Assembly (NCBI RefSeq): GCF_024622975.1
Contig: NZ_JANJZT010000018.1
Location: 56,610 to 80,609 of the forward strand
Direction: 5' to 3'
Length of the DNA: 24,000 nt
Source: Blautia caecimuris
Lineage (GTDB): Bacteria; Bacillota; Clostridia; Lachnospirales; Lachnospiraceae
A program made the translations under genes and the position numbers. This document shows, piece by piece, positions 5,279 to 7,174 of the stretch (the stretch's first letter is position 1; each line of letters begins with the position of its first letter). The notes under the pieces were generated by a model. That model searched no databases. It was not told the DNA's origin and worked only from the letters and a program-made list of their open reading frames with translations.

Positions 5279-5635
5279 ATGCGTAAAAAAGAAGATAAAT
5301 ATGATTTCAGGGCGTTGGGGCTTGCCATAAAAGAAGCCCGTAAAAAACAGGGTTTGACCCGTGAACAGGTGGGGTCAATGATTGAGATTGACCCACGCTA
5401 TTTAACCAACATTGAGAATAAAGGGCAGCACCCAAGTTTACAGGTGCTTTACGACCTTGTATCTCTGCTGAATGTATCAGTGGATGAGTTTTTCTTGCCT
5501 GCCAGCAGTCAGGTGAAAAGCACCAAACGTAGGCAGTTAGAAAACAAAATAGACAATTTCACAGACGCTGACCTTGTTATTATGGAAAGCGTTGCAGATG
5601 GTATTGTCAAATCTAAGGAAGTGGGGGAAATGTAA
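5279..5635 (+). CDS. XRE-family HTH regulator (Tn916 Orf9-like), on the opposite strand to the backbone
   Basis: GGAGGTGG lies 6 nt before the ATG. The HTH is [40 protein letters not shown]. Position and orientation match Tn916 orf9. Confidence 0.85.
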
Positions 5636-5654
5636 ATCCTCCACTTTTGTTTAT
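5619..5654 (+). terminator. Plus-strand-specific terminator of the orf9-like gene
   Basis: A 10-bp stem pairs AAGTGGGGGA with TCCTCCACTT, including one G:U on the + strand (A:C on minus). The loop is AATGTAAA and TTGTTTATAATT follows. There is no U-tract in the minus direction. Confidence 0.55.
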
Positions 5655-5667
5655 AATTGCAGTGATA

Positions 5668-6363
5668 TTAGAATTGATACTCTGCAATATTTTTGAAATC
5701 ATTGTTCAACACATAATATACCTTATTTTTAGCAACGGAATATATAAAAGAAACTCTGGTTGCCCAAAGTCCTTCCTGACGTACTGACCTAAGTACATCA
5801 AAGGCGTTGGAAATAGAGAAGTTTTCTCCATATCCTTGCAGTAAATCCTTTGCCTTTTCATATCTGTTATCCCCAGATAAAACATATGGATTAGTCAATT
5901 CTGGTTTTAAAATGGAGTAATTTGTTATTAAGGAATATTTTTCTTTTTCCAAGCGATACCCAATCCCCGGTTCAATAATGAGAACACGCCCATTTCTATC
6001 CGAAAACATAGCCTGCATAGTAGTGTCAGGTGCATAAGTAATTTTCTTTTTTTTCACTATTTCCAATGAATCGTCAAAAGAGAGATTGCCTTTTATAAAG
6101 TTTTCTGTCAAATCAGCTATTGTATAGCATGATTTATTACCGCAAAATTGTGCATTGTCATTTCCATGTACATACAACAATGTGCCAACATTCCCATTTC
6201 TATTGATTCCGTGAAAAGAGTGGTACTTATTATCGGACATTTTTATCCCTATAAAAAAACGGTCTTTTTCGGCAATTACAGTATGTTCCCATTCAGAAAG
6301 GTCAATATCAAAATTGAACCCAACAATGGTTTCTTTTCCATTATACACAAATCTTGTACACAT
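5668..6363 (-). CDS. Compact Cys-Ntn hydrolase, choloylglycine hydrolase (BSH/penicillin V acylase) family-like
   Basis: 231 aa starting MCT (Cys2 nucleophile). GFNFD, NRNGNVGTLL, FSDRNGRVLIIEP, LITNYS and GDNRYEKA occur in the same order as the conserved BSH/PVA blocks. RBS is AAAGGA. The gene is AT-rich relative to the backbone. Confidence 0.7.
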   Translation of the reverse strand: MCTRFVYNGKETIVGFNFDIDLSEWEHTVIAEKDRFFIGIKMSDNKYHSFHGINRNGNVGTLLYVHGNDNAQFCGNKSCYTIADLTENFIKGNLSFDDSLEIVKKKKITYAPDTTMQAMFSDRNGRVLIIEPGIGYRLEKEKYSLITNYSILKPELTNPYVLSGDNRYEKAKDLLQGYGENFSISNAFDVLRSVRQEGLWATRVSFIYSVAKNKVYYVLNNDFKNIAEYQF

Positions 6364-6407
6364 ATTTGTATTTCCTTTCGTAAACTAATTTTAATAGTAT
6401 AAAAACT

Positions 6408-6423
6408 AATTACATTAGTAATT
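6408..6423. promoter_or_regulatory. Candidate TetR operator (inverted repeat AATTAC-N4-GTAATT)
   Basis: The inverted repeat at 6408-6413 / 6418-6423 abuts or overlaps the -10 of the hydrolase promoter. A direct repeat AAACTAATT occurs at 6382-6390 and 6403-6411. Confidence 0.35.
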
Positions 6424-6449
6424 TTAAATATTATAAGACTGTTTGTCAA
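6421..6449 (-). promoter_or_regulatory. Sigma-70-type promoter of the hydrolase gene
   Basis: On the minus strand: TTGACA (6449-6444), a 17-nt spacer, then TAAAAT (6426-6421). Confidence 0.55.
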
Positions 6450-6479
6450 TACAAGAGTTCATTTTTTCTAACCAAATTA

Positions 6480-6508
6480 TTGACTTCGTTAATTTGATTA
6501 CTTAAAAT
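6480..6508 (+). promoter_or_regulatory. Sigma-70-type promoter of the TetR gene
   Basis: TTGACT (6480-6485), a 17-nt spacer, then TAAAAT (6503-6508). Confidence 0.6.
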
Positions 6509-6542
6509 GAAGTAAATGATGTGTAGAAAGAGGAAAATGAAT

Positions 6543-7103
6543 ATGCGAGTTACAAAAGCCGAAGTTATAAAAACTGCTTCTGATATGGCTGATAGAAATG
6601 GACTTCATAATGTTTCTTTGAAAGCTATTGCTGAAAATTTAGGGATTCGTACCCCCTCCTTATATAATCATATAGGAAGTTTGGATGAACTTCTTAGGGA
6701 GATAGCACATAGTGGTATGCGTACTATGAATGAAAAAATGATTCGTACAGCAATCGGTAAGACAGGAGATTCAGCATTAAAATTAGTGGCAGTTGAATAT
6801 CTTAATTATATGATTGAACATCCCGGTGTTTATGAAATAATTCAATGGGCTAGTTGGAATGGAACAGAGGAAACAGCAATGATTTTTAATGATTATCTAT
6901 CTTTACTTAAAACACTTATTTGCTCATGTGGCTTTAATCCAGATAAGACCACTGAAATTTTGAACATGGTAACAGGTATGCTTCATGGTTATACAACTTT
7001 ACAATTAAGATATGCTTTTTCTAATCCTGATAAAGTAAGAAAAGAATTATCCGAAGCAATTGACACACTACTATTGGGAGCTAATCAAAAATATAAAGAC
7101 TAA
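6543..7103 (+). CDS. TetR/AcrR-family transcriptional regulator
   Basis: The N-terminal HTH is VIKTASDMADRNGLHNVSLKAIAENLGIRTPSLYNHIGSLDELL. The ATG at 6543 lies 8 nt after AAAGAGGA; the upstream ATGs at 6516, 6519 and 6537 have poor spacing. Confidence 0.9.
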   Translation: MRVTKAEVIKTASDMADRNGLHNVSLKAIAENLGIRTPSLYNHIGSLDELLREIAHSGMRTMNEKMIRTAIGKTGDSALKLVAVEYLNYMIEHPGVYEIIQWASWNGTEETAMIFNDYLSLLKTLICSCGFNPDKTTEILNMVTGMLHGYTTLQLRYAFSNPDKVRKELSEAIDTLLLGANQKYKD

Positions 7104-7132
7104 TGATAAATTTTAAAAAGAAATACTTTATA

Positions 7133-7174
7133 AGAGAAACGTGCAAATCTCAAATGAGAAATGCACGTTTCTCT
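7133..7174. terminator. Bidirectional terminator between the convergent TetR and orf13-like genes
   Basis: A perfect 13-bp stem pairs AGAGAAACGTGCA with TGCACGTTTCTCT. A T-rich tract follows on the minus strand (TTATAAAGTATTTCTTTTT). Confidence 0.7.

Follow-up and report, generated by a model that had tools for sequence, protein, structure and literature searches.

Elements of the Tn916/Tn5801 type are the main vehicles of tet(M), and a member of this group whose tet(M) slot holds something else raises the question of what the substitute does and whether it also governs the movement of its carrier. The window analyzed here, a 24,000-nucleotide stretch of Blautia caecimuris (contig NZ_JANJZT010000018.1), presents such a case: an integrative and conjugative element (ICE) with a tetR gene in that slot and, divergent from it, a gene for a compact amidase of 231 aa. 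A preliminary description of the locus, made from the sequence alone, had proposed this pair as a possible ligand-gated trigger for excision and transfer of the ICE. The evidence discussed below leads us, with some caution, to regard another reading as probable, in which the pair is a self-contained module, a TetR-gated amidase, serving as inducible detoxification or resistance cargo on a Tn916 backbone with the guaA habit of Tn5801. A repressor-gated cargo of this kind shows what else the slot can spread.

Sequence profiles and a structural model indicate that the 231-aa protein is a genuine, compact and divergent branch of the choloylglycine hydrolase (CBAH) superfamily of cysteine N-terminal nucleophile (Ntn) hydrolases. 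Taken alone, the protein has no match in Pfam or NCBIfam (PF02275, the CBAH family, gave none even at E<=0.1); a single-sequence search against the PDB sequences placed a penicillin V acylase (PVA) on top with a non-significant E=0.22, and the profile of an alignment of 26 close homologues (A1) found nothing significant in the PDB. Only a wider profile (A2), built from 38 diverse full-length sequences of 22-62% identity, matched the bile salt hydrolase (BSH) 7svk, at 2.5e-8, in an alignment that begins at Met1-Cys2 and pairs the motifs MCT with MCT, GxNfD with GRNlD, GvNxxG with GVNEKG, and TNfs with TNnP. Furthermore, eight of these 38 members match PF02275 individually (best 3.6e-07). Since the single sequence fails in searches where its relatives and the family profile succeed, we consider the amidase a CBAH homologue lying outside the current Pfam model. 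When the AlphaFold2 model, computed with 26 homologues (predicted local distance difference test score, pLDDT, 91.9; predicted template modelling score, pTM, 0.90), was compared with the PDB by Foldseek, the top 50 matches were all PVA or BSH enzymes (best 5.6e-12, probability 1.0, query TM about 0.7). The choloylglycine-hydrolase-like blocks recognized in the preliminary description are thus upheld at the level of family profile and fold, but not by Pfam or NCBIfam searches with the single sequence.

The likeness to the classical enzymes (PF02275, MEROPS C59; for instance C. perfringens BSH, 2bjf, and B. sphaericus PVA, 3pva) extends to the predicted alpha-beta-beta-alpha Ntn fold, the Cys that follows the initiator Met, and the GxN-x-D, G-x-N-x-x-G and T-N-x-S/P motifs, which occur in the same order. 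The difference is one of size. A compact hydrolase some 90-100 residues short had been predicted, and the model and Foldseek agree with this: the protein has about 90 residues fewer than the BSH and PVA targets (231 aa against 294-334 aa). Compared with classical enzymes of about 320-335 aa, the shortening falls mainly after the TN motif (about 80 residues against about 150), and it is in this region that the BSH and PVA enzymes carry their long inter-subunit loop and C-terminal extension. Full-length members of the amidase family measure 225-270 aa; the family comprises 946 matches in a word index and, by exhaustive search, 534 clusters at 50% identity.

As for the catalytic residues, Cys2 is invariant among the 26 close homologues and present in 32 of the 38 diverse members, the others having Ser or Gly at position 2 or a shifted Cys. 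D19, N54 and N148 fall on the BSH Asp21, Asn82 and Asn175 motifs in HMMER alignments to 7svk and 2bjf, are invariant or nearly so in A1, and include, with N54, the equivalent of the oxyanion Asn. The position of BSH Arg18 is occupied by Phe16 (in GFNFD), and by F, Y, M, W, L or A across the family. R167, in a G-D-x-R-Y motif at the start of a helix, is invariant in a 28-sequence alignment and conserved in at least 90% of the 38-member A2, and is likely the equivalent of the second BSH Arg, Arg228, which begins a helix as well; a profile of the C-terminal half of the family (A4) has no BSH match. Of the catalytic set anticipated in the preliminary description, then, Cys2, the Asp and both Asn are present and the second Arg is probably so, but Arg18 has given way to Phe. 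The protein has no signal peptide and is therefore expected to be cytoplasmic. The bile-acid or beta-lactam substrates suggested earlier find no support in a cytoplasmic protein that lacks about 90 residues of the classical BSH and PVA enzymes.

The divergent gene does encode a TetR regulator, as first described: both TetR_N (PF00440, 27.1 bits, cutoff 24) and TetR_C_33 (PF13305, 34 bits, cutoff 26.8) are found in its product, whose closest PDB entry, 1zk8 (1e-17), has no known ligand. The start at ATG 6543 is likelier than that at 6516 because of the spacing to the ribosome binding site (RBS) and because sister loci are called with 186 aa. Both genes have good -35/-10 promoters, again in agreement with the first description (Table 1). 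The tetR-amidase intergenic region was aligned between the window and eight loci whose amidases are 66-72% identical to that of the window (A3), and in this alignment the flanking bases vary freely around an invariant -35 TTGAC and invariant CTAAT-N3-ATTAG half-sites; the amidase RBS and the ATG-TGT-AC that encodes its start are likewise kept in all nine loci. An inverted repeat next to the hydrolase -10 had been noted and is indeed there, but the register given for it, 6408-6423, is not the conserved one, the conserved unit being 6406-6418 (O1). A second unit, O2, follows at a distance of 21 bp, past the transcription start and ahead of the RBS. This spacing of two helical turns and the position over +1 and the early transcript would fit a classical TetR-type repressor. 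A degenerate third palindrome lies in the promoter spacer of tetR, where no copy was detected in the window (6488-6501) at one mismatch or fewer; TetR probably regulates its own gene. The CTAAT-N3-ATTAG motif occurs nowhere else in the window, and the predicted regulon is local for this reason.

That these two genes fill the tet(M) slot follows from the comparison with the annotated Tn925 of pCF10, in which the gene order is the same and the orf12 leader, tet(M) and orf6 take up the stretch from orf13 to orf9. Read on the minus strand, the order in the window is TcpC/orf13, the cargo, an orf9-like gene on the plus strand, a 600-bp leader, the orf7-like, orf8-like and DUF3173 xis-like genes, the integrase and guaA; domain scans and Tn925 thus bear out the gene order and placement given in the preliminary description. 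The 1.5 kb of cargo have a G+C content (GC) of 31%, against 46% in TcpC and 50% in orf14-16, which argues for a foreign origin; the earlier counts of 14 G+C in a 60-nt line of cargo and 31 in one of backbone are exact (14/60 and 31/60). The cargo is co-oriented with orf7, orf8, xis and int and convergent with orf9, which is the geometry of Tn916 too, and such co-orientation with orf7/8 is a general property of any occupant of the slot. On the other side, an inverted repeat between the convergent tetR and TcpC genes is a probable bidirectional terminator and would mark the right edge of the cargo. Besides, other ICEs of the same kind hold additional genes in the slot. Three sister ICEs (loci L024, L026 and L027; positions 6700-8900) have 2.2 kb of further cargo between the amidase gene and orf9, all in the orientation of the amidase, encoding a 313-aa HExxH protein, a 262-aa MerR/TipAS-like regulator and a 62-aa Cys-rich KTR (orf6-like) protein; in three other loci (L001, L002 and L005) GyrI-like, DUF3781 and 81-aa genes stand between tetR and TcpC, accompanied in L002 by IS66.

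The element itself is an ICE resembling Tn916 and Tn5801, inserted at the guaA 3' end. According to the open reading frame (ORF) map and the domain scans it occupies the minus strand, beside guaA at 529-1953, and Pfam recognizes the homologues of orf13-orf24 of the Tn916 family, all in order. From right to left, the conjugation module consists of two DUF961 genes, an FtsK-like gene, Rep_trans, an AT-rich SieB-like insert, two ArdA genes, TcpE, AAA_10, a TrbL_3-like gene, NlpC/P60 plus lysozyme, and TcpC/orf13. The orf9 DNA is 76% identical to orf9 of Tn916-like elements, pCF10 included, and the leader between orf9 and orf7 is 78% identical, in aligned columns, to that of Tn925. The recombination module is not of the Tn916 Xis/Int type: a DUF3173 protein takes the xis position, the integrase is a different, guaA-targeting one, and the element resides at guaA in many hosts. 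Tn5801 has been described as having a Tn916-like backbone and a tyrosine integrase, other than that of Tn916, which inserts it at the guaA 3' end (PMC4844618). Backbone and insertion site are what the window ICE shares with Tn5801 and CW459tet(M), but those carry tet(M), where the window ICE carries tetR and the amidase gene. The same ICE was found at the guaA 3' end in several unrelated hosts. In three further copies (L100, L107 and L109), with an identical orf9 and the same TetR-amidase layout, the ICE does not adjoin guaA, and its integrase is flanked by an HTH_3 or a MerR gene or by a Mob_Pre/transpeptidase region; these non-guaA copies suggest that the ICE can insert at secondary sites or be nested within other mobile elements.

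Table 1. Features of the cargo slot and of the adjoining part of the ICE (positions in the window; A3, intergenic alignment described in the text).
Feature	Position	Strand	Basis or remark
Tyrosine integrase beside the guaA 3' end	2034..3254	-	Pfam; 394 aa as called in sister loci
DUF3173 protein in the xis position	3255..3464	-	PF11372, 1e-27
orf8-like HTH_16 protein	4023..4262	-	PF12645, 4e-26
orf7-like sigma-70 region 4 protein	4259..4681	-	Pfam and NCBIfam; leader and start codon align with Tn925
Leader terminator T2	4827..4865	-	16-bp stem then UUUUUU; -24.5 kcal/mol, z -6.84
Leader terminator T1	5052..5092	-	Stem 5092-5064 then UUUCUUUUU; -14.2 kcal/mol, z -2.85
orf9-like HTH_3 + DBD_HTH regulator, convergent with the amidase gene	5279..5635	+	Pfam
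orf9 terminator	5617..5648	+	12-bp stem then UUUUGUUU; about -19 kcal/mol (centroid)
Compact Cys-Ntn amidase gene, 231 aa, MCTRF start	5668..6363	-	ORF, AlphaFold2, Foldseek, family profile
O2, CTAAT-TTT-AATAG	6385..6397	.	One mismatch; CTAnn-N3-nnTAG kept in 9/9 loci
O1, CTAAT-TAC-ATTAG	6406..6418	.	Perfect palindrome, 2 nt past the amidase -10; half-sites invariant in 9 loci
Amidase promoter, TTGACA-17-TAAAAT	6421..6449	-	11/12 consensus matches; -35 TTGAC invariant in 9 loci
tetR promoter, TTGACT-17-TAAAAT	6480..6508	+	10/12 consensus matches; GTCAA conserved in A3
Third, degenerate palindrome in the tetR promoter spacer	6488..6501	.	CTAATTGAATTAG in other loci, GTAATCAAATTAAC in the window (A3)
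TetR/AcrR-family regulator, 186 aa from ATG 6543	6543..7103 (ORF opens 6516)	+	Pfam
13-bp perfect inverted repeat between convergent tetR and TcpC	7134..7174	.	Read from the sequence; probable bidirectional terminator
orf13/TcpC conjugation protein, backbone edge of the cargo slot	7179..8087	-	PF12642, 2.2e-65

The company that the amidase keeps elsewhere bears on its function. A scan of one genome per species with the A1 profile gave 209 confirmed loci, 80 of which were kept and classified. A divergent tetR adjoins the amidase gene in 17 of these 80, usually beside TcpC, that is, in ICEs. In 41 loci the neighbours are a gene for a CD3324-family regulator, a small Mor-like protein (NF040785), and one for a hexapeptide acetyltransferase; six loci have the acetyltransferase only, four the CD3324-family regulator only, and 12, often at contig ends, neither partner. 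The acetyltransferase thus adjoins the amidase in 47/80 loci, often across a 2-nt gap, and its best match is the Vat family (234-249 bits, below the curated cutoff of 300), with CatB second. Modules of all three genes come in two gene orders with gaps of 2-20 nt, in Lachnospiraceae, Oscillospiraceae and Erysipelotrichaceae (such loci are found within L029-L099, e.g. L010 8812-10696 and L096 5552-7376), and about eight of them lie directly upstream of orf7/orf8-like genes, again a cargo slot. No work on the CD3324 family was found in the literature searched, and neither a Vat-like nor a CD3324 gene is present in the window. Around the amidase genes we also found (i) BlaI/BlaR, with a glyoxalase gene and a gene of the metallo-beta-lactamase fold opposite, (ii) MerR together with an ABC transporter, (iii) GNAT acetyltransferases and methyltransferases, and (iv) TipAS-type and MerR/GyrI-like genes. 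Many members of the family are chromosomal and have no conjugation genes nearby. In the plasmid collection the cargo itself was absent and orf9 alone matched Tn916-like elements; the amidase had there only relatives of 27% identity, on Clostridium plasmids, and the one on Clostridium tagluense plasmids still adjoins a CD3324-family gene. This pattern of neighbours fits a cytoplasmic enzyme modifying xenobiotics or antibiotics, not a bile-acid enzyme or a conjugation factor.

Taken together, these results point towards the following model for the TetR-gated cargo. A horizontally acquired two-gene module would have filled the accessory slot of the ICE. Its TetR repressor would bind the tandem 13-bp palindromes over the transcription start and early leader of a strong sigma-70 amidase promoter, with a third copy at the tetR promoter, and would keep the amidase gene off until a small molecule releases it. 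Removal of Met1 from the enzyme would expose Cys2, whose free amine and thiol would attack a linear amide. From its Vat-like and CD3324 partners and resistance-type neighbours we infer that the amidase may inactivate an amide-bearing antibiotic or xenobiotic acting inside the cell, a role like that of tet(M) in Tn916. Transcription induced in this way, antisense into orf9 and beyond, could secondarily raise excision, as has been proposed for Tn916.

Several points weigh against this model. The literature searched gave no substrate, activity or resistance phenotype for any member of the amidase family, and the window amidase on its own fails the Pfam CBAH model. Because the Arg18 equivalent is missing and that of Arg228 is unconfirmed by alignment, catalytic competence is only predicted. 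Binding of TetR to the palindromes, and a ligand for it, are likewise read from sequence features. The streptogramin-type context is transferred to the window ICE only indirectly, since the window has no Vat-like partner gene and the scores of that protein elsewhere stay under the curated cutoff. The resistance-like neighbours make a weak argument when they lie in cargo slots, which gather such genes anyway.

A more specific version of the detoxification model, which we put forward only tentatively and consider rather less than probable, is that the amidase is a new mobile hydrolase inactivating a ribosome-targeting drug by cleavage of a linear amide, in most genomes alongside a Vat-like acetyltransferase. 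In the window it would have been captured, together with a TetR that senses the drug, by an ICE that has swept through Clostridia of the human gut, and the slot geometry would mean that the same compound could raise excision as well. Streptogramins, lincosamides and phenicols would be conceivable candidates, having a linear amide and a cytoplasmic site of action. Paired genes for streptogramin inactivation are known from staphylococcal plasmids, as vat(A)-vgb(A) and vat(C)-vgb(B). The amidase beside a Vat-like acetyltransferase in 47 of 80 loci resembles them in that an acetyltransferase is paired with a second hydrolytic or lytic enzyme. Differences exist as well: the second enzyme is a Cys-Ntn amidase, not the beta-propeller lyase Vgb, and the acetyltransferase remains under the curated Vat cutoff.

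The possibility raised in the preliminary description, namely that the module is itself a ligand-gated trigger whose derepressed transcript would run antisense through orf9 into orf7, orf8, xis and int and so switch on excision and transfer, seems to us unlikely. It draws on the Tn916 model, in which transcription through tet(M) yields antisense orf9 RNA and de-represses orf7 (PMC7288454), and much of the geometry is in its favor: the cargo is placed as in Tn916, co-oriented with the recombination genes and convergent with orf9, the amidase promoter is strong, the leader is homologous to that of Tn925 (78% in aligned columns), and the extra cargo of the sister ICEs has the same orientation. 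The claim that no minus-strand terminator separates the hydrolase stop from orf9 also held, as that strand has, from 5279 to 5668, only short terminator-like matches of 5-8 bp and nothing convincing; the hairpin at the end of orf9 (5617-5648) is a good terminator on the plus strand only, and on the minus strand it reaches about -9 kcal/mol and has no U-tract. However, two good intrinsic terminators that the preliminary description had missed, T1 and T2, stand between orf9 and orf7, and a transcript from the amidase promoter must cross both (-14.2 and -24.5 kcal/mol), each with a U-tract, before it reaches orf7. The 3' end of the T1 stem and its U-tract lie in or beside a 62-bp stretch without counterpart in Tn925. 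The T2 hairpin is kept in Tn925 with compensatory changes (C-G to T-A at two stem positions), a pattern of conservation that suggests a selected RNA or terminator element of the Tn916-family leader.

Other observations argue against the trigger as well. No TetR operator motif is found near orf9, orf7 or xis. In Mediterraneibacter glycyrrhizinilyticus (locus L036) the TetR-amidase module stands directly upstream of orf7/orf8-like genes, but a strong terminator (-18.3 kcal/mol, z -5.6) comes after it and ahead of these genes. In sister ICEs the extra 2.2 kb of cargo separates the amidase gene from orf9. Both the module and the amidase family as a whole are mostly found in other arrangements, a Vat-like neighbour being commoner than TetR. 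Finally, the leader-peptide attenuator of the orf12 type found in Tn916 is absent upstream of the cargo gene, whose 5' region carries the TetR operator-like sites in its place. Read-through coupling to excision is therefore possible as a side effect of the slot geometry rather than a demonstrated purpose of the module. With respect to Tn916 and Tn925, the window ICE thus shares the slot between orf13 and orf9, the orientation of the cargo, and a homologous orf9 and leader with the T2 hairpin; it differs in the predicted TetR/operator control, which takes the place of a ribosome-mediated attenuator, in the absence of orf6, in the additional 62 bp of leader, and in the DUF3173 protein and integrase of its recombination module.

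A miniature hydrolase of bile salts or of microbially conjugated bile acids, induced through a bile-acid-sensing TetR as an adaptation to the gut niche, appears quite improbable. In its favor, BSHs are the nearest folds with a solved structure, the gene resides in gut Lachnospiraceae and their relatives, and TetR regulators that sense bile acids exist. Nevertheless, the amidase is about 90 residues short of every BSH matched, the Arg18 equivalent is lost, the conserved partners are TetR or a Vat/CatB-like xenobiotic acetyltransferase and no bile-acid gene, and the neighbourhoods hold antibiotic-response genes. A component of the conjugation apparatus, as the NCBI and UniRef name 'conjugal transfer protein' and the adjacency to orf13/TcpC would have it, is hardly credible for a gene that lies in AT-rich cargo and not in the backbone, has no Tn925 counterpart and encodes the fold of a small-molecule amidase.

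We rejected the identity given by that name also in view of the many chromosomal homologues without conjugation genes; NCBI gives orf13 of pCF10 the same label, which suggests that it was carried over by association. IMG uses 'penicillin V acylase-like amidase (Ntn superfamily)' for the family. The name in the other databases is misleading, as the fold and the Vat-like company point to the cleavage of small-molecule amides. A role as a defence system was dropped, the PADLOC models having no match for the amidase, TetR, CD3324 or Vat-like protein.

The TetR-gated amidase is widespread. Its exact 231-aa sequence is indexed in 638 blocks of the collection, its cluster at 90% identity has 1164 members, and well over 1000 contigs carry either this sequence or a near-identical variant. 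Blautia caecimuris, Mediterraneibacter gnavus, Pilosibacter, Enterocloster and Clostridium fessum are among the hosts, and identical copies of the protein come from hundreds of assembled gut metagenomes and from many species of Lachnospiraceae. It is nearly always located in the same ICE at guaA with differing chromosomal flanks, which argues for recent and wide transfer of the element. The enzyme superfamily and the kind of ICE that carries regulated cargo are known; what is new is the compact, uncharacterised variant of the amidase, for whose family neither Pfam nor NCBIfam has a model and the literature searched contained no experimental study. If its substrate is an antibiotic, the gene would be an unrecognised resistance determinant already spread through the human gut, and if the inducer also promotes excision, this ICE family would have a second case of transfer stimulated by a drug, with a different mechanism.

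Some minor observations concern the insertion site and the remainder of the element. Compared with a complete GuaA (511 aa, from L002), the guaA gene (529-1953, plus strand) aligns over residues 169-511 only (910-1950, 52% identity); of the glutamine amidotransferase domain no more than about 78 positions, the first ones, can be detected, so that the N-terminal domain looks internally deleted or degenerate. The DNA upstream of guaA is AT-rich (33-35% GC; region viewed, 200-900). At the other side, neither a repeat of the guaA 3' end nor an 11-bp repeat gave a convincing far end of the ICE within the window. A SieB-like superinfection-exclusion gene (15485-15991, minus strand; PF14163, 3e-48; 30% GC) between the ArdA genes and Rep_trans is a second cargo island of the same ICE. 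Beyond the DUF961 (orf23/24-like) genes, near the presumed far end of the ICE, there are an ORF of 293 aa (20143-21024, minus strand, 29% GC) and one of 155 aa (21514-21981, minus strand), both without Pfam match; past these two lies, at 22136-23047, a gene for a MerR regulator with a TipAS antibiotic-recognition domain.

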